From Thermoanaerobaculia bacterium (GTDB taxonomy: Bacteria; Acidobacteriota; Thermoanaerobaculia; Gp7-AA8), in the NCBI GenBank assembly GCA_036389275.1, contig DASVQE010000052.1:33680-97679 (forward strand): 64,000 nt of DNA. The letters run 5' to 3'. Shown here one piece after another: positions 11,648 to 64,000 of the stretch; positions within the stretch are counted from its first letter, which is position 1; the number at the start of each line of letters is the position of its first letter. A model generated the notes under the pieces. It ran no database searches, had not been told where the DNA came from, and was given only the letters and a program-made list of their open reading frames with translations. The position numbers were made by a program, and so were the translations under genes.

Positions 11648-12432
11648 GCGCGCGGCCGACAGCGTTGATCGCCGACGACGAGCCGCTGCTGCGCGATGCG
11701 CTGCGGCGTCAGCTCGCGAGCGTCTGGCCGGAGCTCGAGATCGTGGCCGAGGCGCGGAACGGGCGGGAGGCGGTGCGGATGTTCGATGAGCGGAGGCCCG
11801 ACGTCTGCTTTCTCGATGTGCACATGCCGGGGCTCTCCGGAGTCGATGCGGCGAATCACATCGGACGGCGCGCGCACGTCGTCTTCGTCACCGCGTACGA
11901 CCACTACGCGGTGCAGGCATTCGCGCAGGGCGTGCTCGATTACCTGCTCAAGCCGGTCGAGCAGGAGCGCCTCGCCGAGACCGTGAGCCGGCTGAAGGAG
12001 CGTCTGCAATCGTCGCGGCCGGCGACCAACAGCGAGCAGTTGTTGCAGGAGCTCGCGGCGCAGCTCGCGAACCTGCAGGCGGCGCCGAAGCGGGAGCCGC
12101 TGCGCTGGATCCGCGCGCAGGCTGGCAAAACGCTGCGGCTGATCGCGGTCGACGACGTCGACTTTCTGCGCGCCGACGCCAAGTACACGATCGTCGGCTG
12201 GCGCGACGGAGGAAAGGCGGCGGAGGCGGTGGTACGGACGCCTGTGAAGGAGTTGCTCGAGCAGCTCGATCCCGATCATTTCGTGCAGGTGCATCGCTCT
12301 GTGGTCGTCAATCTCCGCTCGATCAGCCACGTGCGGCGTCACGACAACGAGACCGCGGAAATTCACCTCAAAGGGCGGGCCGAGGTGCTGCCGGTGAGCC
12401 GGAATTACATGCACATCTTCCGGCAGATGTGA
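11644..12432 (+). CDS. LytTR-family response regulator (REC plus LytTR DNA-binding domain)
   Basis: Supplied ORF starts at 11464, but the likely start is ATG 11644, overlapping the kinase stop (ATGA). REC domain: MSARPTALIADDEPLLRDALRRQL...DVCFLDVHMPGLSGVDAA...VVFVTAYDHYAVQAF. C-terminal LytTR: LIAVDDVDFLRADAKYTIV...ELLEQLDPDHFVQVHRSVVVNLRSISHV. Confidence 0.85.
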   Translation: MSARPTALIADDEPLLRDALRRQLASVWPELEIVAEARNGREAVRMFDERRPDVCFLDVHMPGLSGVDAANHIGRRAHVVFVTAYDHYAVQAFAQGVLDYLLKPVEQERLAETVSRLKERLQSSRPATNSEQLLQELAAQLANLQAAPKREPLRWIRAQAGKTLRLIAVDDVDFLRADAKYTIVGWRDGGKAAEAVVRTPVKELLEQLDPDHFVQVHRSVVVNLRSISHVRRHDNETAEIHLKGRAEVLPVSRNYMHIFRQM

Positions 12433-12513
12433 CGCGCCGCCGTTCGTCCGCGCGAATCCGCCGTCCGTCGCAAACGGCTGGAATGCGCGGGCAGAAGGCG
12501 CGACATTGGCGGC

Positions 12514-13215
12514 ATGAACACACTGCACGCCTCCGATTTGAATCCGCGACGCACCGCCCGCGTGACGGGCATTCTCTTTCTGCTGACGATCCTCGGCGGC
12601 ATCTACGCCCAGGCCTTCGTCAGCAACCGTCTCATTTCGTTTTCCGACGCGGCGCTCACCGCGAACAACATTCTCACGCACCGCTCGCAGTTCGAGCTCG
12701 GACTCACCGTCTACCTGATCGAGATGGCTTGTCAGGTCGCGTCGGTCGCGCTCGTGTATCGGCTGATGAGACGCGTGAACGGCAACGTCGCACTCGTGGC
12801 CGCATTCATCGAGCTCACCGGCTGCGTGATCAAGACGCTCAGCCGCGTCTTCTACATCACTCCGCTTTTCCTGCTGTCCGGAACGACGGCATTCGGCGCC
12901 TTCAACCCGGAGCAGCTCCGCGCGTTGGCGCTCGTGCTATTGAAGATCAACGACCGAGGAGCGGGACTGGCGCTGGCGTTCTTCGGCGTGAGCGGCGTGC
13001 TGAACGGCTATCTCATTTATCGCTCGACGTTCCTGCCGCGGTTCCTCGGCATCGCGGTGATGATCGGCAGCGCCGGCTGGCTGCGCTTCTTCTTTCCGTC
13101 GCTCCGCTTCCCGCCCTTCACCGTGGTGGCGCTCGTCGCGCTGGCCGTGGCCGCGCTGCACATCTTCTGGTTCATCGTCTACGGAGTGGACGAGAAGCGG
13201 TGGGCGGAGCGATGA
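12514..13215 (+). CDS. integral membrane protein, DUF4386-like
   Basis: 233 aa with about 6 predicted TM helices. N-terminal PRRTARVTGILFLLTILGGIYAQAFV resembles the DUF4386 family signature as I recall it. Assignment is from memory, not a search. Confidence 0.5.
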   Translation: MNTLHASDLNPRRTARVTGILFLLTILGGIYAQAFVSNRLISFSDAALTANNILTHRSQFELGLTVYLIEMACQVASVALVYRLMRRVNGNVALVAAFIELTGCVIKTLSRVFYITPLFLLSGTTAFGAFNPEQLRALALVLLKINDRGAGLALAFFGVSGVLNGYLIYRSTFLPRFLGIAVMIGSAGWLRFFFPSLRFPPFTVVALVALAVAALHIFWFIVYGVDEKRWAER

Positions 13216-13217
13216 CG

Positions 13218-14225
13218 TCAGAACACGTTGATGGTGTGCAGCCACTTCTCCACGAGCATGGGCCATTCGGTGGTGATGGGGTTGGCGGTGGGACGCATGC
13301 CGAACGCGTGGCCGCCCTTCGCGTAGAGATGCATCTCGACGGGGACGCGCACTTCATTGAGCGCGAGGCCGTATGCGAGCGAATGGCGGACGGTGTCGGT
13401 GGGATCGTTCATGGCGTGAATCAGCAGCGTCGGCGGCGCGTTCGCGCTGATCTCGACCCAGGGAGACAGCGTGAGGCTCGTCTTCGGACTGGTCTCGTTC
13501 CAGAGATGGCCGGGGTAGAGGAGGATGGCAAAGTCAGGACGGGAAGGCTCGCGATCCGCGTCATCGACCGCGGTGTAGGTGCGCTTCTCGGCGTTGCTCA
13601 CCGCGGCGGCGAGATGACCGCCGGCGGAAACTCCGATCACGCCGATCTTGTGAGGATCGATGCCGTACGACGACGCTTCGTGACGCAGCAAACCGATCGC
13701 ACGCTGCGCGTCCTGCAACGGAAGCTGGACCTTCGGCGCCTCTTCGATGCCGTCGTGATGCCATTGTTGCGGAACGCGGTATTTCAGGACGATGCAGGTC
13801 ATGCCCTGTTTCGTGACCCAGTCGCAGATCTCGGTCCCTTCGAGATCCATCGCCACCACTTCGTATCCGCCGCCGGGCAACACCACCATCGCCGCGCGCG
13901 TGTTGCGACCCTTGGGCGGATAGACGATCATCGTCGGCCGCGACACGGACCCGGCCCAATACCAGGGTCGTCCCGCCACCAGCCTCGACCCGTTCCCTAC
14001 CTCTTCCGCTTTCTCCGACTCCGGCCGTTGAATGGCCAGTCCCGCGGGCCAAAGCGGCAGTTGCCTGCCCTCGGGTCCCGGCTCCCAAACCATCGTCCGC
14101 CAGACCTTCTTGATCGTGATCGGAGTGTCGGTGCTCGGAGTCGTCTGCGCAGCCGCGCCGGCAGCGAGTGCCAACAGAGTCGATGCGGCGATGAAGCGGA
14201 TTGCGTGCGTGAAGCGCATGAGCAT
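13218..14225 (-). CDS. secreted alpha/beta-hydrolase (esterase/lipase, hydrolase fold-3 type)
   Basis: Signal peptide MLMRFTHAIRFIAASTLLALAAGAAAQ. Oxyanion-hole region MVVLPGGGYEV. Nucleophile elbow GVIGVSAGGHLAA (G-x-S-x-G). Later Asp/His-containing region HAMNDPTD...LYAKGGHAF. Confidence 0.8.
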   Translation of the reverse strand: MLMRFTHAIRFIAASTLLALAAGAAAQTTPSTDTPITIKKVWRTMVWEPGPEGRQLPLWPAGLAIQRPESEKAEEVGNGSRLVAGRPWYWAGSVSRPTMIVYPPKGRNTRAAMVVLPGGGYEVVAMDLEGTEICDWVTKQGMTCIVLKYRVPQQWHHDGIEEAPKVQLPLQDAQRAIGLLRHEASSYGIDPHKIGVIGVSAGGHLAAAVSNAEKRTYTAVDDADREPSRPDFAILLYPGHLWNETSPKTSLTLSPWVEISANAPPTLLIHAMNDPTDTVRHSLAYGLALNEVRVPVEMHLYAKGGHAFGMRPTANPITTEWPMLVEKWLHTINVF

Positions 14226-14263
14226 CTCCTACTGTTCGCGCAGCCGGCATCGCGAGAAACATG

Positions 14264-14299
14264 CCTGCCTTGGCGCGCGCCGAAGGCAGCCGCTTTTTT
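14264..14299 (+). terminator. intrinsic-terminator-like element: GC-rich imperfect hairpin followed by TTTTTT, plus-strand orientation
   Basis: The run gcctgccttggcgcgcgccgaaggcagcc forms a stem ctgccttggcgcg/cgcgccgaaggcag with a one-base bulge. It is followed by gcttttttg with the T tract at 14294-14299. It lies in the divergent intergenic region between the hydrolase start (14225, minus) and the 14422 plus-strand gene. No upstream plus-strand CDS for it to terminate. Confidence 0.35.
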
Positions 14300-14421
14300 G
14301 CCGCAGTAGTAGTCCTTCCGTCACTCTGCCCTTACGTCGACATTGACATCCGGAGAAGCGGCAGTTTAGTCTGACCGTCCTTTTCCCCAGATCCGAACTT
14401 TTAACGACAACCGGAGTCGCT

Positions 14422-15246
14422 TTGCACGATCTCTCTTCGCGCGTCTGCCATCTCTGTCTCTTCGTCGCCGTGGCGATGTTCGCCGCCGGCGCGCTCGCGG
14501 CGCCGCCGCTGTTTCCCGAGCCGCTGCATCTGACGCGCGTCGTGGAAACGCCGTTCGGCGGAGCGACCACGATCGAAGAGTTCTGCCAAGGAAACCGGAT
14601 CGCGACGGTGATCGGTATGCGCACGATCGTCGTCGACTACGACAAGCAGACGGTGACCGAGATCTCGCGCGCCGACGCAACGTACAGCGTCACCTCGTTC
14701 AGCGACGTCGCCGCGGCCACCGCGCCGTCGGCGAAGCGCAGCACGCTGGCGACGAAGAGCAGCGGCGCGAACGACGAGCTGCGCACGATCGCGACGCCGG
14801 CGGGCCGCGACCGCGGTCATTACTTTGCCGTCGAGCCGAAGGCGCACGCGCACATCCGCAAGATGGAGATCGGCGTGGACGAGCGCGTGGCCCTTTCCCG
14901 CGAAGCAGTCGAAGCGCTTCTCGGCGCATCGTTCCCGAACGCGCCGACCGACGAAGCGCAGCTCGCGCTGCGCGCTTCGGCTGAAGGCGGAAAACCGGCC
15001 GGCGACGCGCGCGCGAAAAGCGCCGGCGGAGAGTCGCGCTTCGCGCTGCCGCTCGAGCAGCGCGTGCAATACGACGCGGGCGGCGGCAAAGAGTTCGTCG
15101 TCACGAACCGGGTCACGCGCGTCGGGAACGAGCTCGCGCCGAATGCGCTCGCGGCCATTCCGCCGGGCGCGCACGCGGTCGAGTCGCATTTCCTCCGGAC
15201 CCGCCGCGAGCTCGACGAGCTCGACCATCTTCCGCCGAATCCGTAG
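14422..15246 (+). CDS. small secreted hypothetical protein (274 aa) immediately upstream of the 9232-aa gene
   Basis: Signal-peptide-like N-terminus LCLFVAVAMFAAGALAAPP. No recognisable domain. Ala- and Arg-rich C-terminal half. The stop at 15246 is 14 nt before ATG 15261, suggesting co-transcription. Confidence 0.5.
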   Translation: MHDLSSRVCHLCLFVAVAMFAAGALAAPPLFPEPLHLTRVVETPFGGATTIEEFCQGNRIATVIGMRTIVVDYDKQTVTEISRADATYSVTSFSDVAAATAPSAKRSTLATKSSGANDELRTIATPAGRDRGHYFAVEPKAHAHIRKMEIGVDERVALSREAVEALLGASFPNAPTDEAQLALRASAEGGKPAGDARAKSAGGESRFALPLEQRVQYDAGGGKEFVVTNRVTRVGNELAPNALAAIPPGAHAVESHFLRTRRELDELDHLPPNP

Positions 15247-15260
15247 TCGCAGGTGCTTCG

Positions 15261-18200
15261 ATGATCGTTACGTGGCCGGTCCGCTTCAGAAAGACACATT
15301 TGTTCCTGCTGCTCGTGCTGCTGGCGCTCTGGCCGGCGGCCGCGCGCGCGCAATCGTCGGACATCGCCACCGATGAGCTGCGCATCTCCGGCAGCGGCCT
15401 GACGCTCGACGACGTGGCGAAAGTCGCGTCGGTGAACATCCCCACGACGATCCAGACGCGCTTCGCCGGCTTGATCAACGACCAGGCGCCGGAAGTGCGC
15501 GACCTCAAGGCGGTCGGCGAGCTCACCGGCCCTTCGCTCACCACGCCGCTCCGGCTCGAAACCGAGCCGGGGCACGCCTTCCAGATCCCCGGCCTCGCGC
15601 TCGAGGGCGACTACCTCCTGCAGAACGTCCGGCTCATGCGCGGCGACACGTTCGTGCAGGCGTCGGCGAAACCGAGCGCGCTGATCAAGGTCACGACCAT
15701 CCTCGTCGCGGACGTCAAGATCACGCAGCTCACGCCCGAGCAGATCCGCGCGCGCGGCATCGTCATCGACGCCACGCACTTTGACGTCTACCAATACACG
15801 CTGACCTTCTACATCGAAGGGAAGCCGGTCGAGATCCCGTTCCCGGTGATCATCGACAAGACCAGCGGCGAGATCACGCTGCTGAGCGGCCCCGATGGAT
15901 ATGGCCTGACGAATCCGATCCCGCGCGAGCTGCCGCGGTGGGAGCCGCCGTCGATCTATGCGATCGGCTGGAGCGAAGACGGCGGCGAGGACGAACCGGA
16001 GGAGAACGAAAAGGAGCCGAATGAGGATGGCCCGACCATTCCCGCGGTGATCGTCATCCCGAACAGCGTCGGCGTGCTGCATCAGTTCTTCGTCGTATCG
16101 CTGAGCGTGCGCAACAACGCGCCGGCGGGATCGGCGATCCGCCTCTCCGACATCACGGCCACGATGCTGCCGCCGCCGGAGCTGCGCGTGGCGAAGACGC
16201 AGCCGGCGGTGCCGTTCGGAAGGCCGATCTCGCTCACCGATCCGAACACCGGCGCGACGTTCCTGATCGCGCAGGCGGAGGCGAAGGCGGAGTGGACGCT
16301 GGAAGGCCTTCGCGCCGGCACGCATGTGTTCGAGCTCGACCTCGCGGCCACGTATCAGGAGTCGCCCGCGGCTCCGGCCATTCCGATGCGCGCGCACACC
16401 CGGCACGCCATCACCGTCCACGACAACCGCTTCAACATCACCTTCGCGCATCCGGAGACGGTGCGCAAAGGGATCGACTACTCGACGTGGTCGTTCGTCA
16501 CGAACATGTCGGGAGCGCTGCAGACGCTGCATCTGCGCAGCGACCTGCACGCCTGCGGCGGCACCGGCACAGTGGGCAACGTCTGCCGCGTCGACGATGC
16601 CTTCGCGAACGTGCCGTCGTGCGAGGCCGAGCCGGGCGCGCGGCTCTGCCTCGTCGACGCGGTGAACGGCGTCATGCAGCTCGTGCTCGATCCCGGCGAG
16701 ACGCGCGGCGTCGAGTTCAAGCTGCGCTCCGGCGTGACCGGCTCGGTCTACGCGACCTCCGGCTCGTTCGACGAGCCGCTCACCGGATCGGTGCAGCTCA
16801 CCATGGGCGTGAGCGAGAGCGGAGTGCCGCTCTCGCCGGCGGTGCTGCTCATGCCGCACTACGCGCGCTATCTCGATCCGTCGTTCGTTTCCGACAACCT
16901 GCAACTGCTCGGCCTCGGCTACAGCGTGGCCACCGCTCCGATCAACGAGTACAGCGCGCGGCTGCCGCGCATCATCCGCTCGGACGTCTTCACCCGCGCG
17001 GTCGACATCTCGCGCGCGGGACAGCGCCTCTACATCGGCGAAGAGAAGCGTGAGGCGTTCACGCATCTCGCCCTCGACCTCCTCGGCAACGGCGAGCTGA
17101 ATCAGCTCTCCGAATACGACGCCCTGCGGCGGCGCGAGTTGAGCGGCTACGTGGCCGGGAAAGCGCTCGCGGCGCAGCTCTCCGCGGCGGCGCTGCCGGA
17201 CGCGGCGTCGTTCGATCGCTTCCTCTCCGACTTCGGCACCACCACCGCGCATCGCGAGTCGTATCTCGCGGCGCTGGTCCATGGCGCGGCCGCGGCGGGC
17301 GAGCGTCCGTACGCGATCCACGTGAAGAACATCGCCACCGGCGCGGCGCTCGATCTGCCAAACGAGCTGGCCACGTTCTCGCGGCGCGGCACGCGCGACA
17401 TCCCGTTCGGCGATCTCTCCAGCCTCACCAGCGCGGACAAGACGCGCACCGGCGAGCTCGCGCTGGTGGGCGCGTGGAAGGGTCCGTACGAGCTGACGGT
17501 GAAAGCGGCCGCCGGCGCGTCGTTCTCACTCGACGTGCTCCTGCCGGCGAGCGTGCCGGCGAAGAAGCGCCTGGTGCGCTTCCAGATCGACGCGATGCCG
17601 GCCGGCGACCTGACGCTCGTGGTCGATCCCGCCGCGCCGGCGCTCACGCTCGCCGGCGGCGGCCGCACGTTCACGCCGGTCAGTGATCGCGAGCTCGACC
17701 CGGCGCCGCTGCGCATCATCGGCGCGCGGCAGGACCTTCACCTCGACATCACCGGCCACAAAGTCGCGCTGCTGTTCAACCGCCCGCCGGACGAATCGCG
17801 CCTGCCGAGCGTGCGCGATCTCTTCCAGACGAAGGTGCATTTCAGCCAGGGCTCGATCGCGTACGACGGCCCGCGCCCGATCGACGCCGCCACGTTCCAG
17901 GGCGACGGCCGCACGGTCTACATCACCCATTCGCATGCGCTGCACGTCAACGCCAGCTACACCATCACCCCGAAACCGTTCCGGGATCCGCTGACCGGTC
18001 AGGACGTCTCGCTGCCTGCATTGCCGGCGGCGATGGTCAACGACATTCCGGCGGCGATCATCTACGGCCAGGTGCTGCGCGGCGACAACCATCCCGTGCC
18101 CGGCGCGCAGGTCGCGCTCTCGACGCATGGCGACCAGGACCCCGACACGCAGGGCGACGAGACCATTCAATACGACGTCGCGTCCGATCCCGACGGCGCA

Positions 18201-21200
18201 TACCTCTTCGAGTGCGTGCCGCGGAACTTCGGCACCGGCAACGGAACGTATCTGCTCTGGGCGACCGACTCGAACGGCAAGCAGACCTCCGCACAGGGTG
18301 CAGCGCGTCTCGCATACGTCGCCGATCGTGTGAACCTCGTCTACCTCGGCCGCGGACGCGCCGCCGGGCAGGTGCGCTACCACACCGGCGAACCGCTCGC
18401 GAACCGGCAGGTCGTGGTCGGCAGCACGATGTTCGGCGACGCGCGCAACGCCACCACCGACAGCACCGGCCACTTCGAAGTGGGAGACCTGCCGGTCGGG
18501 CCGCTGACGTTCAGCGTCTCCGACGCCGCGGGCAATTTCGCCTGGGCGGCGAACGAGATCGCCACCGCCGACTCGTCCATCGTGCAGGACCTCGTCATCT
18601 ACAAGCAGCCGTTCCCCGGAACCGGAACCGTGCGCGTCTTCGTCAAGCGTTCCGACACGCAGCAGCCGGTCCCCGGCGCGACGGTCGGCGTTCTTCGCGA
18701 AGGCGTGCAGGTCGGCCTCGTCACCACCGGCGCCGACGGGCGCGCCGAATTCACCAAAGTGCCGGCGGGATTCCTCTCGATCCTCGTGGCGGAGTGGGAC
18801 GTCTCGCGGCAGCTCGCCGCGGCGGACGTCGAGCTGACCAACGACGAAGTGGAGGACCTCACCTTCACGCTGAGCGTCAGCAACGATCCGCTCACCACGA
18901 TCACCGGCACGGTGCGCGAGGCCGATCCGGCGTTCCCGCAGGACGAGACGAAGGCGAAGCCGGTGGCGGGCGCGATCGTCGAGATCTACGGCCTCAATCC
19001 CGTCATCGCCGCACAGGACGGCTCGTTCGTCTTCACATCCGTCCCGGTGTCGAAGGCGGGCGCGGCGGTGCGCGCGCGGAGCCCGCTCTCCGGACGCGTG
19101 GCGACCCTCAACGTGCCGCGGCTCTCCGCATCGGAGACCGCGTCGATGCCGATCTACATCGCGGCGAACGCGGCGTACGGCAAAGGAACGCTGCGCGTCA
19201 AACTGCTCGATGCCGCCGGCAATCCGCTCGGCGGTGCAAGCGTCTTTTTCCCCGGATTCCCGCTGAAGTTCTTCAAGCCCGTCGCCGGCCAGACCGGCTC
19301 GTACGAGATGCGCGACCTGCAGACGAATCAAAAGTACGAGATCGTCGCGCTGCCGCCTTCGTCGATGGGCGACCAGTTCGCGACCGCGGAAGCGGAGGTT
19401 CTCTTCGACGGTCAGACCGCGCTCGTGCCGATGCGGCTGCAGGGTGCGGGCAAGGTGCGCGTCGACCTGAAAGCGGGCGACATCGCCGCGATCGGACGCG
19501 TGAAGATCCGCTACGCCGCGTTCGATTCGAAGGCGCAAGGTGTGGTCGACAAACTCCTTGAGCTCACCACCGATGACGGCAGCGGGAAAGCGGGCGTGGC
19601 GGTGTTCGCCGGCGTGCCCGTCGGCGCGTACGAGGTGTGGTCGGAGGACGCAGACCTCGGCTACGCGAATTACGAGAGCACCATCCACTACGACGGCGAG
19701 GTGACGGACGTTCATCTCGTCAGCAGGAAGCTCGCGGTCGTTCGCGGAACGGTGGTGGCGCTCGACGAGCTCACGCCGCAGCCGAACCTCCTCGTCACGC
19801 TCGACGACGGCGTCTTCAAGTACACCGCCGTCACCGCGGAAGACGGCACGTTCGAGCTCCGCAACATCCCCGGCGGAATCGGGTTCCGCATCTACGTCGC
19901 CACGACCGTCGGAGACACCTACCGCGTCGGCTTCATCGACGGCCGCACGCCGGAATCGGGCGGACTGTTGGAAGGCGTGAAGATCGTGCTCAAGAAGATC
20001 GGCACGATCCGCGGCAAAGTCGTCTACAAGGGCTACAAAGTCTTCGACCCGAAAGACGCGTCGAAGAACGTCGTCGATCCGACTCCGAACGATCTCTCCG
20101 ACAACGCGCCGGTGCCGCTGGCGTCGTTCACGCTGTCGGAGCTCGAGTTCCCGAACCGCAGCTTCGGAGAGCGCACCGAGCCGCGCTCGGCGGACCTCGG
20201 CGGCAACTTCCAGCTCAACGGCATCTTCGCCGGGCCGCTGCGCATCAGCGCCTGGTCGCGCGAGAACCTCGAGCTCACCGGCGAGTGGACCGGCGCGATC
20301 GCGGATGAAGGGCAGACCGTCGAAGCGTACGTCGGGATCGGCGCCGGCGGCGCGGGCCCGCTCACGGTCCGCGTCTACGATCCGAATCACGCCAACGAGC
20401 CGGTCTTCAACGCCGAGGTCAGCGTGTTCCGGCAGTTCAACGGAGAGTCGGTGCTGTTCGACTTCACCACCACCGACGCGAACGGCGTGGCCGTCTTTCC
20501 GCAGCTTCCCGCGGAGAAGTACCTGGTCCGGGCGTTCGCGAAGGTGACGGGCAACTCGGGATCGGCGGAAGTGACGGTCGATCCGATCGCCGGCGGCTCG
20601 ACGGACGTCCTGTTGAAAGTCAGCGGCAAAGTCACCGGCGTGCTGCGCGACGGCAACAGCGGGTTGGGCGTTGCCGCCGTTCCGGTGAGCCTCTACGCCG
20701 ACGGCTATTCGACGCGCGAGACGTCGGACGAACACGGCAACTACGAGTTCATCGGCGTGCGCCAGGGACGCTTCGTCCTCGACGCCATCGACCAGGCGTT
20801 CCGCCGCGCGCGCGCCGACGGCGAGATCACGCTCGCGCAGCCGGCGGCGAACATCGATCTCACCCTCGACCCGATCTACACGCTGCACCTGAAGGTCGTC
20901 TATCCCGCGGACGACGGCTCGCCGTCGTCCGTCGAAGTGCCGGCCTCGCAGGTGAGCGCGAAGCAGCGCTGCTTCGAGTACGGCTTCACCGAATTCACCC
21001 GCACCGTCCGGTGTGACTACGACCGCCGGCTGCAGGTGCCGGGAAATGACTTCCCGGGTCTGTTTCAAGACGCACCGGTCAGGCTGTCGATCGACGAGGT
21101 CGGAGGGAAAAAGCGGAACGTCCGCCTCGACTCGCGCTACCCGGCCGGCAGCACGGCCGAAGCGCCGCTCGTGGTGACGCTCCCGGCATCCGGCACGGTG

Positions 21201-61000: not shown

Positions 61001-63190
61001 CACCAGATCGACAACCGCACCATGAAACTCGACGGTGCGGACGTGCTGCAGCGCGACTACGCGTTCGCCGACGGACGCCGCTCCACCGACGGCGTCTGGC
61101 AGAGCACCTACGACGAGTTCGGCCGCCTCACGCGCATCGAAAGCAGCTCGCGCCGCATCGAGTACGTCTACGGTCCGACCGACCGCATCATCGGCCGCAA
61201 CGCCTACATGGTGGGCGGCAGCGGCTGGACGCTCGAGACGCGCAGCACCGTTCTCGCTGCGGACGCTCTGCCGGCGCAGACGACGTTCGTGTGGGACCCG
61301 ATCGTCGACCGCCTCGTCGCGATTTACGACGCCGGTGCTTCGACCGGCGCGACCGCCGCGCCCGATGCCGGACTGCTGCGCCAATACGTGCACGGCGACG
61401 CCGGCTACGACGATCCGGGCGAAGTGTTCGTCGCCTCCACACCCGGCGGCACCGCCACGCGTTACCTCCCGGTCTTCGACGAAGCTGGTACGGGCTCGCT
61501 GCAGGCCGTGGTGGACGGAGACGGCCACGTCGTCGAGCGCGTGCTCTTCGGCGACTCGTACGGCGCCGCGCCGCGCTTCCTGCACGGCCCGGTGGTCGAG
61601 AAGGTGACGTTCACCGCCAAGCGCGATCCGGCCGGCACGATCACGGAGGCCGAGGTTCGCGTCCGCTTCAGCGAGAACGTCGCCTCGAGCGGCCTCGCCA
61701 ACGCCATGCGCCTCCGCGCGCTCGATGCAGACGGCGAGCAGGTCGCGCTGCACGGCGGCGCGCCGGAGTTCCCCGACCCGACGAGCGACGATCACCACGA
61801 GCTCCGCTGGCGCCTCACGCCGGGCGACTGGTCCGCCCTCGTCAACGCCGCCGGCGCCGAGTCGATCGAAGTCGCCGTCTCCTCATCCCTCCGCACCGAC
61901 GCCTGGGGCAACACCCCCGTCCAGGAAGTCCCCGACTGGGCCCACACCCTCTTCGGCGCCACCAGCACCACCGCCTACCCGGTCATCGTCACCGCCCTGA
62001 TCACCACCCTCACCACCCCCCCAGCCGCCGGAATGCCGCAGCCGCCCCTGTACGAGATCAAGTCCCTCTACATGGCGGCCTCCCCAACCTCCCGCACCCA
62101 CACCCTAACCGGCTTCAAAGCCGCCCCCTTCACCGACCCCGCCACCGGCCTCGCCTTCTTCCGAGCCCGCTGGTACGACCCCGAAACCGGCACCTGGCTC
62201 ACGCCGGATCCGGTCGGTTACGACGATTCCTCGAACCTCTACGCGTTCGCAGGTGGCGATCCGGTGAATAGCTCGGACCCGACGGGATTGTGCCTCGGTT
62301 TCGGACAAGGCACTTGCGCCGATTGGGCGAACGCAGGGAAGAAGAAGCTCGATGCAGTTCGACTCTTCGTCGACAAGCACACCGGCTCGACAATTTTCGA
62401 CGTCGGAGTCAACGCGCAGCTTGGCTTCGCACTCGATGTCGTCGATACCTTCGTGTTGGATCCGTTACGTTTTGGCGAAGCAACGGGTACGGCGATCGGC
62501 AGCGGCGCCGGCGCGGTGTCAACCACGCTTGCTGTCGTTCAGGACGTCGGGCGCGGCGCTGCACTCGCGGCAGGTGCCGGGACAGTGATCAGGGCCGCAG
62601 CTCGATTCACTGTCGCGGTGCGTTCGGCCGTAGCGTTCGACTCGCTTGGAGAAGCTGCAGCTCGCGGCTTGGACGAGGGAGCAGCGATCGCGGCGCGCGA
62701 GCTTGCGCCGGACATTTCCGCCGCGGCAGTTCAAGAACAGCGCGTTCTGGCCAATATCGCGGAGAGTGCCGAGGCGCGAGCCGCGTCAAACTTCCCGACC
62801 ACCGCAGCGGCCGCAGATGAGCTGACCGGCATTACCAACCGCGCGGCAAAGATCACCGACCGTCTGATCAAAAACAACAGTACATATTGGGCGAGGGTGT
62901 ACAACAATCCTGCGCTGCGCGGCCAGCGATTTGCGAGAGCCTTTGCGCGAAATCCGAATTTTGCACGTAGTCTTATCCGTGGAAACATCATGGATGACGT
63001 CGTCAAGCAGCTCGCTCAGAAATCGGGCAAGCTGCCGTTCATGCGGATCACGCCTCGTGGCGCCCGCGGAGCAGATTTCATCAACCTTTTCCTCAACAGC
63101 GCGTGGGACGTGACGACAGCCGGATCGTGGGCGCGACATGTGAGTCGTTACGCGAAGGAAATGTATCGACTTTATCCGTTAATCTATTAG
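43013..63190 (+). CDS. giant secreted RHS/YD-repeat polymorphic toxin (6725 aa) with a ~4600-aa N-terminal LamG/Ig/SbsA stalk and a C-terminal toxin domain of unknown family
   Basis: TTG start at 43013 preceded by AAGGAA at 43001-43006. Signal peptide MRPGSSFAFSAVAAVAAALVLSFAAPLAAQTP. Contains a LamG-like domain, 18 tandem Ig-like domains, SbsA Ig-like and CarboxypepD_reg-like domains and a few LVIVD-like repeats. The RHS region begins at IGLGWDASFLRR with many YD repeats (YLYDIEGRLAQIVDPIGRITTIRY, FEYDHVGRLIAVQLPN, YTYDLAAKIVTTTDPAG, YEAYDDLGRPTLTRTIRY). The RHS core ends SDPTGL. Confidence 0.9.
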   Translation: MRPGSSFAFSAVAAVAAALVLSFAAPLAAQTPITAYSDDFQSYGTQSNPPGWVDTSIGASAPEAAGLYKTWPDPTQGNSGPNVVYGTKQSSGQPEGNNPRVGTFSTYTAKSFAGAGRFEYSGRFLRTSADTRVGITFFSSYPQADRYYLIGLWSHPQQTTKLTMQLFGFGGPAPQQTTVSDFTPEVGKWYRFRVRVDDVEGKTVIRGRFWLDTNAEPQTWHIDAVDASAGRLTSGRIGIWSAVRGDAYVDDISAQSPVDHAPPTISFFVGDTPLTDGMKFHTAVTPRIVVTDDLSEVRWTAQLDGGNFVTPVTGQGDHILRVDAKDAVGNTASKSVTFYIDTIPPRLTIVKPADGSITSSDVNISLHVDDASLPATFAATLDGATWDVTRPVSAEGQHQLTVTAFDAVGLASAPQTATFIIDKTAPAYELFANAKAFPADGYVFGEDVTITIVPKDLTLDKVSLLLDGAPYTAGTPVTDERKHTLGGTVTDKVGHVTTIAERTFWIDKTAPTVELLGNGTAIKQYYDIASLVAELKISDVTATRVTATLNGAPANLPVTLTGEATYVVAGSVTDAANHVTPFGPTTFAIDRSAPQITLSANGAAFPASGHIFLGDVALAVDVKDLTLADYSVTHDGAAVELPLTLTDEFRDHVIKVVATDKLNHSASVGPLTFTIDKFAPVVAVTNNGAELTDGRYFNRPVRPVINVTDITATTVTATLNGQRFESGSEITADGAYTLAGNVADGAGRSTPIGPIAFTIDTTAPTGVFVEGDNKPFPDGKTLNVEAIRASVKITDANPLPAKILLDGAEYAEGTPITLEDAHTLTATLVDKAGNSGSVPPVSFRIDRTRPVLTLFANGDVFPAKAFDTRFDVAVTYKVEDKSAVTIAATLDGANVTLPVTISDERVHTLVATATDAAGNVGTAGPFTFTIEKTPPNVEVLLNDAPAGLNAVFKVDVRVKLQISAGLTSRSASILLNGQSYVEGTAITAPGVYVVTGTVTTASGVTVPIPETTFTIDKTAPDVTLKNRDRDFEANGFHYNADVVPNVTCHDDLTRCTTELKVDGNDWKNGDPITAEGEHAVVAAATDTAGNRKELPAVTFVLDKTSPAITITAPAEGQTVSAPRVVVSGTSDDAVSIDVNGTLATIDAAAKTFTTTPVALLEGENEIVVVALDQAGNASTRTVHVVADTRAPLLAVQSPAPNACLNAQQLVVRGSVSDPWIQTVKVTVDADVVANALDAQKQTFTATFANIAEGPHRISVEATDTLGHRTVAALQVMIDRTAPLIDIFEGAAPFTARLVNHPVALSIRARDGDPNVAVAARLGATPYVSGTPIAAPGAYHLDVLAEDCAGNQSTQPLDFEIDLLAPAFDTLVPPNGATVGALPQSITGHVSRDAVRVEIEGTAIAAAPSADGNFVLALGSIAREGANQFVLRATDAAGNVAQVPYAFTVHSAAPTIQIYESGKPLSDGALFNRPVTPEVRVSDPTAQVTVLIGGQTWDQKPLTADGTYTISVTVRDELQRTAEASRTFTIDRTPPVVKITKPLAGTVSSDVVTIEGTAGDAVSVDVHGAIVAPGAGGAFRREGVRLEVGQNDLVVSATDRAGNTAADSVLVTWLGSGPAIVITSPRDASLTNRPRIDVTGHVLGALGGGEVVVGSKTATLDATGVFRVTDYQLAGGENVITARVPNGASASVTITADFKAPALSVLASGQPLANDAHFPGEVSISVNASDDRNLALTRVTIDGAEPPSLPAKVSSTGGHVLNARARDEAGNETVVERTFFIGSGGGGSGCSIEEVDPADGATVAPSANATTASVRITGRASGATAVTINGAAADVADGTFAKTVELPSEGANAIGIRCTDASGALSEPKNLVYYRVSGNPSVRITAPAEGGTTGDKSVVVTGEVGADVVSIDVNGIAGTIRDGSPRTFRVENVTLTDGTNILVAHGRNNAYRVGTHSVRVLSLQTAPQIRITSPEANSVAGGGKTTVGGTYSNLLPQTLAIAGGTNAPAADVVALSDTTGTFVFRGVGLAAGARTLTITGRNAAGVAATASLVVNSDPAAASIEIAAPSDNAYVPASEPVTVTGAYAGASGTARVEINGVAATVDPTASTYAGSAQHTGAPLTPVVARLIDANGSGPAASIMVRKLAGPLRVRSTFPADGAEGVDPGVLLLIDFSAPLDRATLSAIQLRSGSTPVDGTLRVDDSVVIFTPSTLLAPGTSYTVTIPATLKDVAGNAIDKASSFSFTTTVSAPSTPPQLDPIAITGCPATVSITGSAPPFARLRLEVGTIALSGQADASGRFTMAFPLSGRSGYQSGHLTIVGSDGSRSPEAPVSFRMDCAAPSVVGASYDRNANVLTIAFSKPVAAPTLVVGSSIVLTTSDNNSIGGTVALSGAIATVTPASDLRDKSFTLEVQTSVTDTAGNHLGSPFPQTFSLDGGDAPLPGDGSGFITGEVYDATSGRPLRGATVSVEVPRSAFARVPSVTSHAHLTTSGDVEMSKETDPRGRYTLPLPEGAHTIKAGSPQHTTVWRQIVVPAGAGVVPIDIRLTRRGERKSAATLPLTLQDGGGALTVTAPVKLTVTGGVASQAQVALTSVGAQSLAGLLPLGFSPIASAEVAVFGADGAASFDAQVNGELEFTLPSAAISAAHQTLSLVRYDSERDEWRTLIAVMAPAAGDAWRAPITSAGAYGVVYRDQASTLRQPPAPAAGATLQPATETCATSATPCVLVRKEFDIEPPVVPPSGRAVAKLQIAGEDAATFPSGTAVQAYVNEVLTLSSGDTVVDPPFTTDVLLYRTLDGKVGIGEFLIEPSEQARREVLETGVDQVKILQYPGRLDRGSLIGSEGGRVPGDSVTNVEIPAGATSEQLRATVATLKPENLGVAIAGFDVVGGFDLTLTRVATPPQTDADGDGVPDPAPALQLSRAARATINVDTAKLASPDAQLILVEVVNQSAWGAFYRLAVPMTRLDTPANGVTLVRYTSQSVNPASLAVDGIVREGRFLLLAAKAPIAFASGALRSTATGPYLPDMRVNSVMAGGAAYGVSDVTRASGVFALPIAAAPAPSFSITPRHARFGVGTAFTAAAPAAGETVAIGDWLFVVQPLRLTNVTPADGEIVPVAPITIKADFDLPIDTLSLQNAITVATTDGAIPLGGRIERDAADDHRVVFTSTGTVSASTTYRVTIQPTVRATNGAVLGQVHTFLVRTEGLPRTGEIHPERIRITLPDAQGHSRIFGDAKAIPAGFQVVAQRPDKGFRSVYDATAGANGDFSFVVGDRNDSDRLDLGDVVEVQILNLAFNVVATVQLTPFVTEDGKGFVAAANRDTTFVSTQGVAVTVAAGTFDKATLVTTDLNDSKAAFAAVPNFDQELHWVKTLDLHFDGTAKQRIEVSIPRPANLPLDGHDYLIGLLGQSSRGPRIAIEALLHPEGDKLTTALPPESSGANLQTKAAAMSGSGAAAAQFCMPGVFGAGSNAIFEMGNIGAEAVGWGFIAPIQQYMEVFNDMFQATYLPSLAYQTAKCRAIPVVKGKPFHLIGVDPDTGSQIFNTPYSAIDDINSIVAIDNPFPDTTGPFPIFGAPFRVERLEAPAPADNDGNGSIDPGEFKGRGFVVTRTESGTLTVTNDSNAAAQDVLPENTTVRLYNATRSILSTAATVGGGGSFTITSTASEGDLLFLYIGGRDVAPDATMNIVFSEPIAVGTIPTGADDPTRNQIINTYLHGVIKLEQVFDTGAVDISSNAVFRADSGNRRVLIDLPATFVRDGRYRITALASLTDPKNNRLAERRDKNGTVIGTPAADITFDFKVRPGPTSDHAFTLQPTATQTGGSLKDLARFGNLVFVAALDGGLLAYDISEPSMSNGTLPIAVVPTNWANSGVQVSDFWSVAADHHGRIYGGGFQASFSVVRGYRVEDFLAARDGQLNCPGGPHTNCISHGSAIVGWRPGVGVGMPLNAGWMVTNQPSAYPRKIKLLEQDDEQSATLDELKSNTGDGVEILDEVSAGNGYHRFTVRLTYAPSGESHLVQRVTVVNPALDFRWHGDAFKGETLDIPNVLARPEDRLTILRNLTTYGVVTLFGYGAAVYDLNAMETNDFKLRCTGTFLGQHGTACAAALTQRALPEKIVNTTGSNEGCNLEHDMSDDLTYSPEIFGIVRSVPTASGGVNVSPDIHIIGVRTKNGLIDVVSALPSEDDGGLTDGCESGANTVPVEDHPALSAIIQRVSTTQRQTGGALYRWGISSTQNVAGVRGSAPNTDVHRDYLLVAANKWGILVFEIGGTPPPAGPGYGTLGLESLVDVIWIAAGAAAVAPIEGTNLAAVIDLKGRLLILDLANIDERWGPATAANPSPLLPPGPFKIPTAAMNAAGGASGEIGVDDPRVVYKSANKFTSGTLPPIVDPDTGIAFGGDVLTQNMRVRAVLDPKIEFLIDAGNGLQPTNGITPLGVAKPSSASTTPAGALGAFRVRVTLPGSLAEVLADQKVHLAVESELVPGAVTPQSARSLPRAHLRVNDREGTVDPRKVTDFTLRRAIAFTPSMENTYRHQRGFNRLLSPWIVALADPRASERVTGDAAAKTADGCLECERPSGLKGKTEADGVYELYTAGRYISARLDSHQPGVLAVDDLPDFYKYLAEKSRLDVRIPTTIADTVRPKAALIPPQHAPLAQGTIDGTVFVHSGELGVDAADLYITGRGPADLMLTRSYRSRTIGGTPIGLGWDASFLRRIRPLPDGNVEYRDASGDIWLFKKPAQGPGAAPPAALQALEASVGVRFRYTAPPGLYVSLMRSDDGWTMLDDKWRITRFDNFGRITAETDEFWKAADVGAGAASGNQFRYLYDIEGRLAQIVDPIGRITTIRYWEKNPTGANVNCTNVGAKTNPCAYPGLMKEIVDWRRRSVLFEYDHVGRLIAVQLPNVKAIDGAPSSYDFSTPDKRPRIRYQYDSATAAYPGDTASPQEFTDFMHYAANLAEIVEPADESSGDARVRFEFFRTTDEKRDRLHFERWPCGSRAPGCTETEADFAYQGNILSIKDMLGQVWEYALTQDSEQRKHIQSVTAKDVPTFHVSASSTNIPLVLTATGADLVTKYENFSADGIPTRTTYPSGRVVDLTIAAPQSNPNAHCKQLQSVNDNGGGASRNTTITYETQQTALCTATALQRGNDKRETESPSRDRDKTTTVDETAGVSVETTYDSFGRPTIVTRKGSGTDSMKTVYTYKPNNSGDPIAWSRLADITGGNNDTYQNFTYTSDSVGGETVTVHDTKRKTTTTTRYDASGQPIYRKLDDDDFGILSEEKMAYDASGRLTWTSTTAPTGTFDTTVKYDPLGRVDTTTTTRNNVMGVDKDLEVRHTYDLAAKIVTTTDPAGPGGAPAAQQITTLDALGRPIRIEHRASSPPPGGGDTPTILQLLAYDKHGAVSYQSDTVRDASITSRDGLGRPAFTLRRDGLRTTFSWSDWDQPQQTTVTAGSATVSSTRQFFTDEGQLYATNESVDTRVRRTRRTWLAGGQQVLDRTGIGFGLNDDTAPGAARGTRTTTDLAGRVTDVVTGGLGAGDTDITKIYHHTNFADFRGDVATLVHEIEPMRNVTIDHRQTLDGLDRVRNAKISDHYETTTTYDVAGNLELVTPSGEGATRMFSDSRGLTYRTERPDAPDNVVLRFFDERGALRRITDETGDITNYITDDLGRVVRVDYPDTTHEETRYENKTGLVTATRDRAGQWLSYNFDDGGRVTHIRLGEDPNNGPVVTEIEYNDAKRIARVANKNGAVEYEAYDDLGRPTLTRTIRYANESGLKPAPDRIVSDSHTQTHAWSVFGSERSSWSLPVAGTSPAAQNGTSWRTAVIETRDAGGNLVLQQANGADIATAIPGGIGRVLEHDRALSTSGMLATSYGFTDASGSGPDPGDPAIAPSGMLSRSETKVGSRVLAGTQTFPDRSLRVRTAHDLALGRSSKWVYDGRGRLTSSKLLVPQEDLLTTPAIADVLSGSEFREERQTETIFGPLEHGRLGLARSLEVEPASWRADEDPGHQIDNRTMKLDGADVLQRDYAFADGRRSTDGVWQSTYDEFGRLTRIESSSRRIEYVYGPTDRIIGRNAYMVGGSGWTLETRSTVLAADALPAQTTFVWDPIVDRLVAIYDAGASTGATAAPDAGLLRQYVHGDAGYDDPGEVFVASTPGGTATRYLPVFDEAGTGSLQAVVDGDGHVVERVLFGDSYGAAPRFLHGPVVEKVTFTAKRDPAGTITEAEVRVRFSENVASSGLANAMRLRALDADGEQVALHGGAPEFPDPTSDDHHELRWRLTPGDWSALVNAAGAESIEVAVSSSLRTDAWGNTPVQEVPDWAHTLFGATSTTAYPVIVTALITTLTTPPAAGMPQPPLYEIKSLYMAASPTSRTHTLTGFKAAPFTDPATGLAFFRARWYDPETGTWLTPDPVGYDDSSNLYAFAGGDPVNSSDPTGLCLGFGQGTCADWANAGKKKLDAVRLFVDKHTGSTIFDVGVNAQLGFALDVVDTFVLDPLRFGEATGTAIGSGAGAVSTTLAVVQDVGRGAALAAGAGTVIRAAARFTVAVRSAVAFDSLGEAAARGLDEGAAIAARELAPDISAAAVQEQRVLANIAESAEARAASNFPTTAAAADELTGITNRAAKITDRLIKNNSTYWARVYNNPALRGQRFARAFARNPNFARSLIRGNIMDDVVKQLAQKSGKLPFMRITPRGARGADFINLFLNSAWDVTTAGSWARHVSRYAKEMYRLYPLIY
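43100..43800 (+). other. N-terminal LamG/concanavalin-like jelly-roll domain (DUF1080-like)
   Basis: FQSYGTQSNPPGWVD...GKWYRFRVRVDDVEGKTVIRGRFWLDTNAEPQTWHIDAVDASAGRLTSGRIGIWSAVRGDAYVDDIS. The terminal G.IG(I/L)....G...(F/V)D.(I/V) pattern is characteristic of this lectin-like fold. Confidence 0.5.
43790..48350 (+). repeat. 18 tandem ~85-aa Ig-like domains (about 255-bp period)
   Basis: Linker motif (T/A)F.ID(K/R)T(A/P)P recurs at about 44030, 44270, 44520, 44770, 45030, 45280, 45540, 45795, 46050, 46305, 46560, 46835, 47085, 47345, 47595, 47850, 48095 and 48340. Each unit also carries a T.TD.AGN.S/T motif. Confidence 0.8.
49450..54400 (+). other. region with at least four SbsA-type Ig-like domains (about 49450-49750, 50025-50310, 52300-52620, 54040-54400), a CarboxypepD_reg-like domain (about 50340-50600) and unassigned sequence
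   Basis: First SbsA-type example: LRVRSTFPADGAEGVDPGVLLLIDFSAPLDRATLSAIQLRSGSTPVDGTLRVDDSVVIFTPSTLLAPGTSYTVTIPATLKDVAGNAIDKASSFSFTT. CarboxypepD_reg-like example: GFITGEVYDATSGRPLRGATVSVEVPRS. LVIVD-like examples at about 54460-54540 (GNLVFVAALDGGLLAYDISEPS) and 55750 (GILVFEIGG). Confidence 0.55.
57100..61800 (+). other. RHS/YD-repeat shell region of the 6725-aa toxin
   Basis: Begins with the RHS start motif G.GW (IGLGWDASFLRRIRPLPDGNVEYRDASGDIWLF) and has dense YD repeats to about 61700. Confidence 0.85.
61990..62290 (+). other. RHS repeat-associated core with canonical DPxGL autoproteolysis motif
   Basis: FRARWYDPETGTWLTPDPVGYDDSSNLYAFAGGDPVNSSDPTGL. The DPTGL codons lie at about 62276-62290. 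Confidence 0.8.
62291..63187 (+). other. C-terminal polymorphic toxin domain (~299 aa), family not recognisable
   Basis: CLGFGQGTCADWANAGKKKLDAVRLFVDKHTGSTIFDVGVNAQLGF...NRAAKITDRLIKNNSTYWARVYNNPALRGQRFARAFARNPNFARSLIRGNIMDDVVKQLAQKSGKLPFMRITPRGARGADFINLFLNSAWDVTTAGSWARHVSRYAKEMYRLYPLIY. Lower GC than the host background. Confidence 0.5.
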
Positions 63191-63192
63191 CC

Positions 63193-64000
63193 ATGCCGGA
63201 GAAGCAGAAGGCGGTTGCGAGGATTTTGGCCGCGCAAACAGCGCAGGAAATGCGAGAGATTGCAGAGCGGTACGACATGATCGCGGGCGGGAAGATCGAC
63301 CTTCGCGATACCAGGTGCCGATTCAATCACGCTGAGATTGATCTTAAGGAATTCCTGCTCACCGGCTGTGATCTGTCGGGGTCGACTCTGACGAACTGCA
63401 TGGGAGAGGGCGTCAGCTTCGACGGGTGCAGGCTGAAGCAGGTTCGCATCACGGCCGAGAAAGGCAGGAAGGTGTCGTTTCAGGAAGCTTCGTTCAATGA
63501 AGCTTTTTTGGAGGACGTCACAATCGGTCCTCGCACACTCGATCTCTCTCGGACTATGTACCGGAAGGCGCGTCTGCGAAACGTCACCTTCACAATGGGA
63601 AAGCTTTTCAATGCGGATTTCACCGGCGCGCTCTTCGAGGATGTGTTTTTTCGAAGCGCTGAATTGAAGAGCGCAAGCTTCCGAGGGGCGAGTCTTACGA
63701 GAGTCTCGTTTGAAAAGGCAACGCTCGAGGACGCTGATTTCTCCCAGGCGGAGTTTCATCAAATGGAGCACTGGGGAGAGCCCGATTTTTCCGGCGCTAA
63801 AATCAGCGATGATCTGCGGTATAGGTACGGGATTGTCCGCGATCCGTCCTCAAAGATTGTTGCGCTCATCAATAGCGGCAGGTTCAATCAAGACGAAGCC
63901 GCTGTACTGAGCGCCTTTCTCGAGCGCAACAGAGACTTTCTCTCGAATCCCGAAGTGATGCTGATCGGGTCCGAGTACGATATCGACGCTGGCCTGTTCG
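63193..64000 (+). CDS. pentapeptide-repeat protein, candidate immunity protein (at least 269 aa; runs off the 3' end of the window)
   Basis: Own translation from ATG 63193, 2 nt after the toxin TAG, open to the window end: MPEKQKAVARILAAQTAQEMREIAERYDMIAGGKIDLRDTRCRFNHAEIDLKEFLLTGCDLSGSTLTNCMGEGVSFDGCRLKQVRITAEKGRKVSFQEASFNEAFLEDVTIGPRTLDLSRTMYRKARLRNVTFTMGKLFNADFTGALFEDVFFRSAELKSASFRGASLTRVSFEKATLEDADFSQAEFHQME... Tandem A(D/N)(L/F)xx pentapeptides. GC about 50-55%, well below background. Not in the supplied ORF track because there is no stop in the window. Confidence 0.75.
   Translation, partial: MPEKQKAVARILAAQTAQEMREIAERYDMIAGGKIDLRDTRCRFNHAEIDLKEFLLTGCDLSGSTLTNCMGEGVSFDGCRLKQVRITAEKGRKVSFQEASFNEAFLEDVTIGPRTLDLSRTMYRKARLRNVTFTMGKLFNADFTGALFEDVFFRSAELKSASFRGASLTRVSFEKATLEDADFSQAEFHQMEHWGEPDFSGAKISDDLRYRYGIVRDPSSKIVALINSGRFNQDEAAVLSAFLERNRDFLSNPEVMLIGSEYDIDAGLF

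Follow-up and report, generated by a model that had tools for sequence, protein, structure and literature searches.

A pentapeptide-repeat protein as the probable cognate immunity protein of the C-terminal toxin domain of a giant Rhs protein in Thermoanaerobaculia

Layout of the giant Rhs gene and its downstream neighbour

The window (the whole stretch of 64,000 nucleotides analysed here, from a metagenome-assembled genome, or MAG, of the Thermoanaerobaculia, Acidobacteriota) ends inside a gene for a pentapeptide-repeat protein (PRP), which lies directly behind a very large Rhs gene. The following features were delineated in this region.

43013 to 63190, forward strand: giant Rhs/YD-repeat polymorphic toxin, 6725 aa (ORF list and Pfam)
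62132 to 62290, forward strand: Rhs-associated core end (NCBIfam TIGR03696, Rhs_assc_core, and the translation)
62291 to 62815, forward strand: variable linker of about 175 aa (alignment of relatives, hydropathy and charge)
62816 to 63190, forward strand: C-terminal toxin domain, 124 aa plus stop (conservation in relatives and AF2 model)
63193 to 64000, forward strand: pentapeptide-repeat protein, probable cognate immunity protein, 269 of 283 codons (Pfam, the full-length protein P0001 and the family alignment)

A TAG codon at 63188-63190 closes the giant ORF, and only the dinucleotide CC separates it from the ATG of the PRP gene at 63193, on the same strand. In the giant protein, Ig-like and Glucodextran_B domains are located in the N-terminal half, and DUF6531, RHS repeats, the core end, the linker and the toxin domain follow; Pfam matches were obtained to Big_13, Glucodextran_B, Big_5, DUF6531 and RHS_repeat. 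An identical 6725-aa product is called on the source contigs (L001/L002). In the translation of 62093-63187, residues 14-66 matched the Rhs_assc_core model with 60.4 bits (cut-off 32.5). The core finishes with the sequence PVNSSDPTGL at 62261-62290, which contains the DPxGL motif, the expected boundary of self-cleavage ahead of the tip. With its RHS repeats and a core ending in DPxGL before a variable tip, the carrier has the makeup of a Rhs/YD-repeat protein.

The 299-aa tip that follows DPTGL had been taken as a whole to be the toxin. Alignment of relatives leads us to abandon this assignment in part: conservation is restricted to the last 125 aa or so, which form the conserved domain, and the first 175 aa or so constitute a variable linker. 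The linker is Gly/Ala-rich, mildly hydrophobic and has a pI of 4.9. It is not conserved between relatives, the type found in the window and in locus L005 being different from that of loci L007 and L009. Possibly, this segment serves in entry or translocation.

Base composition changes along the same stretch. The GC content is 0.69 in the body of the giant gene and 0.675 in the whole window, against 0.541 in the toxin domain and 0.547 in the PRP ORF. The latter is thus low in GC relative to its surroundings, and the drop begins within the 299-aa tip. Together, the toxin domain and the PRP gene make up a compositionally distinct, mobile two-gene module (GC 0.54 versus 0.69). On the source contig, genes for a methyltransferase, a DUF87 ATPase and an integrase lie just downstream of the PRP gene. 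Scanning the junction and the region 3' of the PRP gene for promoters and terminators returned nothing informative. Altogether, the coordinates, the Pfam scores (given below) and the GC values all agree with the original prediction of a low-GC pentapeptide ORF 2 nt past the toxin stop.

Conservation and predicted fold of the toxin domain

The basic character ascribed earlier to the C-terminus of the tip was confirmed. The pI is 9.8 for the 299 aa and rises to 10.95, with a net charge of +13, in the last 125 aa. Profile searches with the toxin domain gave no match in Pfam, NCBIfam or PDB sequences, and in ten of its distant relatives Pfam likewise left this domain unmatched. When the toxin alone was used as query, a word-indexed homologue search gave six matches, none of them a named relative; the same search with a profile of the trimmed core returned short proteins only, unnamed or labelled "hypothetical protein". 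In an exhaustive profile search at E ≤ 1e-3, the superfamily comprised 154 cluster representatives. These range in size from 65 to 6725 aa, and the domain usually ends about 15 residues or less from the C-terminus. Among the representatives, Pfam confirmed RHS repeats in two only (P0065 and P0071).

Conservation was counted in 177 sequences, with residue numbers starting at position 62816 of the window. Near-invariant positions are G56, D60, K/R64, G85, P/A86, D87, W97, D98, T100, T101, W105, H108 and Y112. They include D60 (98%), P/A86-D87 (100%), D98 (99%), H108 (97%) and Y112 (98%), and they define a signature made of an Asp, a GPD and a WDxTT..H motif. Position 64 is K in 67% of the sequences and R in 30%.

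An AF2 model built from 7 sequences reached a pLDDT of 60.5 and was discarded, and one built from 75 sequences reached a pLDDT of 89 and a pTM of 0.81. In the latter, helices span residues 47-70 and 102-111, and strands span residues 77-78, 88-90, 95-100 and 118-123. The predicted order of the core elements is thus alpha-beta-beta-beta-alpha-beta, as in restriction-endonuclease-like (PD-(D/E)xK) enzymes. The model places D60 in helix 1, the literal (G)PD before strand 2, and D98 in strand 3. Core order and acidic positions in the model and the alignment are therefore those of a PD-(D/E)xK enzyme, but the catalytic Lys expected two residues past the strand-3 acid is replaced by Thr in 98% of the sequences. 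One might conjecture that K/R64, in helix 1, takes its place.

A comparison of the model with PDB and BFVD by Foldseek gave no significant match. Among the top-ranking matches, all below significance, EcoRV, homing endonucleases, Holliday-junction resolvases and Vsr/DUF559 proteins turn up repeatedly. With the Tox-REase PD-(D/E)xK toxins, the window domain shares the predicted core order, the (G)PD, acidic residues in helix 1 and strand 3, a basic character and the C-terminal location. Unlike these toxins, the window domain has no sequence match to the Tox-REase Pfam models and carries WDxTT in strand 3 (Thr for Lys). In addition, His108 and Tyr112 are near-invariant in its superfamily, and its structural matches stay below significance.

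On the strength of the model, we consider that the domain is most likely a variant PD-(D/E)xK-type nuclease, at somewhat better than even odds. Since the canonical Lys is absent and no significant Foldseek match was obtained, we treat this activity as the most likely one and not as a finding. The suggestion that the toxin targets nucleic acid is plausible because the domain is basic and its predicted fold is nuclease-like. Of 35 toxin-PRP pairs, 31 have a basic toxin core.

The pentapeptide-repeat family and its linkage to the toxin domain

For most pentapeptide-repeat proteins no function is known; where one is, it is mostly the protection of gyrase. In the window, the reading frame starting with the ATG at 63193 runs to the window end (269 codons). 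It was matched by the Pfam models Pentapeptide_4 (67.1 bits, cut-off 38, E 1.4e-18), Pentapeptide (61.5 bits, cut-off 20.2, E 5e-17) and Pentapeptide_3 (44.2 bits, cut-off 27), which identifies the product as a pentapeptide-repeat protein at the curated Pfam thresholds (PF00805, PF13599 and PF13576).

The gene had been described as incomplete at the window edge, and it is. A full-length protein 100% identical to it, P0001, is encoded on 151.6-kb contigs that extend the window and contain the window end verbatim. As P0001 is 283 aa long, the window lacks 14 codons only; these encode VKIMKALKEEDVIH. The full-length protein matches the Pfam models like the part present in the window, and pentapeptide periodicity is present.

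The protein begins with a helical cap (approximately aa 1-34), followed by roughly 33 pentapeptides (aa 35-200). A family-specific C-terminal domain starts at a WGEP motif at aa 194-197. The sequence matches PRPs with solved beta-helix structures (the designed beta1 proteins, All3740, MfpA and QnrB1), which lends indirect support to a right-handed quadrilateral beta-helix as its fold. Neither a signal peptide nor a membrane segment is apparent (maximum KD19 1.08), and the 283-aa protein is most likely cytoplasmic.

At the repeat level, the window PRP shows a weak likeness to Qnr, MfpA and McbG-like proteins. Membership in the Qnr, MfpA, HetL or HalA families was considered and rejected, all NCBIfam scores being far under the cut-offs: penta_rpt_Qnr gave 31.8 bits (cut-off 240), MfpA gave 23.5 (cut-off 360) and the Qnr subfamily models gave at most 25 (cut-offs of at least 425).

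Approximately 20 close relatives of the PRP were found, all of them in metagenomes or MAGs. Their identity is 37-69%, and most measure 278-288 aa, with a few shorter or truncated. Fourteen genomic contexts of this close group were informative. In ten, a toxin domain ends 2-23 nt before the PRP gene, and the N-terminal parts preceding this domain are very different. The ten contexts (window/L001, L005, L007, L009, L010, L011, L014, L015, L054 and L055) are described below; L006 and L013 have the same layout as L005.

Window/L001: 6725-aa Rhs protein before the PRP
L007: 5859-aa giant protein before the PRP
L009: protein of at least 4554 aa before the PRP
L054: protein of at least 1716 aa before the PRP
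L014 and L015: toxin domain before the PRP
L005/L006/L013: 474 aa, with a signal-peptide-like N-terminus, a short Rhs end and the tip
L010: 241 aa, with a signal peptide as the only delivery part
L011: bare 130-aa domain beside integrase and ParE genes
L055: uncalled, N-terminally truncated toxin fragment with its stop 2 nt before the PRP

The L055 fragment and its PRP gene sit behind another putative toxin accompanied by a gene for a TPR protein, which is the layout of a displaced "orphan" module. In the four other contexts (L016; L017-L020/L023; L021/L022; L056), the PRP gene was found without an ORF of the toxin superfamily in any frame. Toxin-less PRP genes and displaced modules such as L055 are patterns typical of immunity genes, and count in favour of an immunity role. 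The four toxin-less contexts among the 14 also make a toxin-independent role of the PRP possible.

The association extends well beyond the close group. When one genome per species was scanned for the trimmed toxin core, 29 loci were identified in at least eight phyla. They belong to Myxococcota, Armatimonadota, Bacteroidota (Bacteroides/Mediterranea strains are among the genomes with the pairing), Acidobacteriota, Verrucomicrobiota, Actinomycetota and Planctomycetota, and also include one Methanomassiliicoccales MAG and one MAG labelled Borreliella. In all 29 species genomes, the next ORF after the toxin encodes a PRP, at distances ranging from a few nucleotides of overlap to about 60 nt. This count combines 28 loci recognized with a local HMM and L045, whose 328-aa PRP aligns with the others; the Pfam Pentapeptide model matched 29 of the 30 sequences submitted. 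In P0065, a distant RHS protein (toxin-domain E 2e-8), the toxin is also followed by a 308-aa PRP. In the window, in its close relatives with a toxin domain and in the 29 loci alike, the PRP gene occupies the same strand as the toxin domain and comes directly after it.

The linkage was found to track the toxin domain rather than the delivery part. The paired domain may follow a giant Rhs protein or a short Rhs end, may have nothing but a signal peptide before it, and may stand as a bare domain or as a truncated fragment. In at least 12 of the 29 loci, an open frame of more than 1000 aa lies ahead of the toxin domain and runs off the 3-kb flank. L048 and L053 show Rhs core-end motifs, and signal peptides are present on several of the short toxin forms.

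A comparison by hhalign aligned the window-type with the distant PRPs over 245 columns (probability 99.5%, E 8e-23), the C-terminal non-repeat domain included; judging by this alignment, they are one family. Its members measure 280-330 aa and are 15-24% identical across the superfamily (a mispicked L045 ORF being excluded). Toxin and PRP diverge in parallel. Their identity matrices are correlated with r = 0.88 over 35 pairs and r = 0.84 when only distant pairs are considered, and in Mantel tests none of 2000 permutations gave a value as high in either case. Plain genetic linkage would also produce such co-divergence.

The immunity reading, its alternatives and known systems

Taken together, these data make cognate immunity towards the approximately 125-aa toxin domain of the Rhs protein the most likely role of the PRP encoded at 63193-64000 (probability about 0.75). 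Genomic evidence for a toxin-immunity pair usually takes the form of conserved linkage, co-divergence and orphan genes, and, as far as sequence comparison can tell, these are unusually clean here. Comparative genomics thus gives strong backing to the pairing proposed in the original prediction; the anatomy, the repeats, the linkage, the co-divergence and the topology of the predicted fold come from the sequences themselves, whereas we infer that the PRP binds the toxin directly, that the toxin has nuclease chemistry and that the PRP mimics DNA.

The system would work as follows. After release of the tip by the Rhs shell behind the DPxGL motif, the tip would get into a competitor cell, where the basic toxin domain would attack a cytoplasmic substrate, most likely nucleic acid. 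The domain would have a variant restriction-endonuclease-like fold, with a metal site formed by D60, D87 and D98 together with H108. Producer cells and their kin would make the PRP by coupled translation, its start being 2 nt past the toxin stop, and the PRP would neutralize the toxin domain, most probably by binding it directly. The rod-shaped beta-helix of the PRP may fill the substrate groove of the toxin. It had been proposed that the PRP might mimic DNA. This idea is weakly supported, and a strong form of mimicry based on charge was rejected, the PRPs being mildly acidic: the net charge is -6 for the window protein, with a family median of -2.7, and 7 of the 35 proteins are neutral or basic. 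Some of these seven may carry mis-set start codons.

Comparison with described systems places the locus within a familiar scheme. A Rhs toxin followed by an immunity gene is an ordinary architecture. As in the Rhs/YD-repeat systems typified by RhsA-RhsI (PMC3482391), the window contains RHS repeats, DUF6531 and a core ending in DPxGL, followed by a variable tip that differs in base composition and, past the stop, by a small same-strand gene, and displaced orphan modules occur. Unlike in these systems, the tip matches no catalogued toxin family, and the partner is a PRP, a type for which the available part of the survey text has no mention. The carrier is also unusually large (6725 aa), it belongs to a Thermoanaerobaculia MAG, and the scanned ORFs included none with a T6SS marker.

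The original prediction had called PRPs an established class of immunity proteins. In the available part of the polymorphic-toxin survey taken as reference (Zhang et al. 2012, PMC3482391), the word "pentapeptide" is absent, and T6SS papers cited in PMC10933656 and PMC11481896 present PRPs as accessory proteins. A 2017 classification (PMC5714182) reports uncharacterized YjbI-like PRP genes beside GH-E Rhs toxins, with no annotated immunity gene there. A preprint of July 2026 (bioRxiv 10.64898/2026.07.13.738213) infers a PRP-like immunity protein on the basis of structure predictions. It describes Tse6, a PAAR-Rhs protein of Stenotrophomonas rhizophila with a rare domain of unknown function, provisionally considered a nuclease, and reports that the predicted structure of its immunity protein Tsi6a resembles the PRP partner of a T7SS toxin of Mycobacterium chelonae. 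Tse6 orthologues are reported from Actinomycetes, Planctomycetes, Myxococcota and Verrucomicrobia, with varied delivery domains. "Established class" is therefore an overstatement, since the pairing of PRPs with toxins is at most newly and thinly described.

Like Tse6-Tsi6a and the M. chelonae pair DYE20_11250-DYE20_11255, the window combines a Rhs C-terminal domain with a PRP or PRP-like partner, and the spread of Tse6 orthologues over phyla resembles that of the window toxin superfamily. However, Tse6-Tsi6a is described as rare and confined to saline habitats, whereas the present pairing occurs in at least eight phyla, including in soil metagenomes and in Bacteroides/Mediterranea. Going by the published description, on which this comparison is based, Tse6-Tsi6a may be the same toxin-PRP pairing.

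A different way for the PRP to confer protection would be to shield or rescue the cellular target of the toxin, as McbG, AlbG, Qnr and MfpA do for gyrase or topoisomerase IV. In that case, the toxin would be a protein that poisons a type II topoisomerase or some other DNA-handling enzyme. In the literature consulted, the PRPs with a demonstrated protective role act on gyrase (PMC7897471, PMC6722960). McbG, AlbG, Qnr and MfpA give self-protection or resistance against a DNA-directed poison and are rod-shaped beta-helices proposed to mimic DNA, and the window PRP weakly resembles proteins of this kind in its repeats. Both the universal linkage and the toxin-less PRPs fit target protection as well as they fit direct binding. 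However, those proteins measure about 180-220 aa and act on gyrase against small molecules or peptides, whereas the window PRP is tied to a protein toxin domain, falls widely short of the Qnr and MfpA cut-offs quoted above, and has a distinct architecture of 280-330 aa in the family with an extra C-terminal domain of about 80 aa. If the PRPs protected a conserved host enzyme, one would expect them to be more conserved, whereas they are 15-24% identical and track the toxin. Moreover, the predicted fold and acidic triad of the toxin look enzymatic, not like those of a gyrase-binding poison. We thus regard target protection as unlikely.

Alternatively, the two genes could form an intracellular toxin-antitoxin or defence system, that is, an addiction or abortive-infection pair carried by mobile elements, in which fusion to Rhs would be secondary. 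The bare and short versions of the toxin located among integrase, PIN, ParE and SymE genes (L005, L011) are in keeping with this proposal, as are the three genes just past the PRP gene on the source contig. It is hard to reconcile with the long open frames ahead of the toxin domain in at least 12 of the 29 loci, with the RHS repeats of P0065 and P0071, the core-end motifs of L048 and L053 and the several signal peptides, or with the position of the window domain behind a Rhs core ending in DPxGL; we rate it as very unlikely. Even a toxin-antitoxin pair would leave the PRP as the neutralizing partner.

Least probable, by our estimate, is that the PRP is an accessory factor or chaperone that folds, loads or delivers the Rhs tip, like the DUF2169-linked PRPs of T6SS, and no antidote: adjacency, probable co-translation and the accessory role given to PRPs in the T6SS literature would fit, but the PRP goes with the toxin domain and not with the delivery machinery (signal-peptide-only, bare 130-aa and truncated forms), it is also found without any toxin, and neither the genes called on L001/L002 nor the scanned large ORFs of the window include a DUF2169, VgrG or PAAR domain.

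Returning to cognate immunity as the preferred reading, the curated libraries searched (Pfam, NCBIfam and PDB sequences in the case of the toxin) contain neither the toxin family nor the PRP family that is its exclusive partner across phyla. It seems doubtful that the PRP clade with its own C-terminal domain is, as a whole, the dedicated sole partner of one toxin superfamily and acts either as a nucleic-acid mimic that plugs a new variant PD-(D/E)xK toxin or as a protector of its DNA-handling target, after the manner of Qnr and McbG with gyrase. If true, the dedicated partnership would explain what many orphan PRPs do, and in its target-protection version it would add to polymorphic-toxin systems an immunity mechanism without precedent there.

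In conclusion, the toxin-PRP pair would represent a new toxin-immunity module for the annotation of Rhs and other polymorphic toxins. It ties a distinct PRP family to one toxin domain and so provides that family with a directly testable function. The pair may also offer a simple system in which to ask if a beta-helix can mimic nucleic acid against a nuclease-like toxin.

Genes surrounding the Rhs toxin locus

Two further large genes precede the 6725-aa Rhs toxin on its own strand, and a longer contig that contains the end of the window verbatim (L001) carries the sequence on beyond the pentapeptide-repeat protein (PRP), the probable immunity protein.

Window 553-9498, plus strand: second Rhs protein, 2981 aa long, that combines RHS repeats, DUF6531 and an RHS core with an Ntox16 domain at the C-terminus
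Window 15261-42959, plus strand: 9232-aa ORF, its stop codon 53 nt upstream of the start of the 6725-aa Rhs toxin
L001 10853-20852: continuation of the window past 64000, with an alpha/beta hydrolase gene and a minus-strand cluster

The Ntox16 toxin domain (PF15523) of the second Rhs protein scores 26.9 bits against a cut-off of 25, and the immunity gene of this protein should lie directly downstream of position 9498. In the 9232-aa ORF, a scan of both ends identified CarboxypepD_reg, SpaA-like, DUF4369 and Big_6 domains and LVIVD repeats; the ends scanned contained no RHS repeats. On the 3' side of the PRP gene, the minus-strand cluster of L001 encodes a DUF87 ATPase, an N6/N4 DNA methyltransferase and a phage-type integrase. 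The region (10853-20852) has a GC content of about 0.60 and resembles a mobile or defence island that borders the toxin locus.

Displaced and possibly mobile copies of the toxin-PRP module

The module, consisting of the toxin domain with the PRP gene directly after it, was also found at related loci, one of which (L055) retains only a toxin-domain fragment.

L055 1687-2169: toxin-domain fragment (E-value 1e-44)
L055 2172-3026: PRP gene

The fragment, overlooked by the gene caller, is truncated at its N-terminus and ends with a stop codon 2 nt ahead of the PRP gene; upstream of it lies a different putative toxin gene, which is itself followed by a gene for a TPR protein. A displaced orphan module has just this layout. 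At another locus (L005, 1-16855), a short toxin-PRP pair, adjoined by SymE-like and HTH genes, is flanked by two near-duplicate gene blocks that encode primase-like (DnaG/Toprim), integrase and PIN proteins, which suggests that the module is carried there by tandem integrative elements. The module further occurs in an archaeal MAG (L053, Methanomassiliicoccales), behind an Rhs-core-like motif, and in a MAG labelled Borreliella garinii (L027), an implausible spirochaete label on a record named 'SulCav'. Either horizontal transfer or mis-binning could account for these two occurrences.

PRP genes lacking a toxin, and the linker of the toxin proteins

The toxin-less PRPs of two loci (L022 and L056) belong to the most divergent clade.

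L022 1597-2145, 2396-2845 and 4000-4605: small ORFs flanking the PRP gene, without a Pfam match
L056 593-1036: unrelated 147-aa ORF preceding the PRP gene

The ORFs upstream of the PRP genes at the two loci show no relation to each other, and both loci could be immunity-gene islands. Where the toxin domain is present, the linker joining it to the Rhs end is extremely Gly-rich, hydrophobic and glycine-zipper-like in several relatives (L045, 2300-2900; the tips of L007 and L009), a property hinting that this segment serves membrane insertion or entry.
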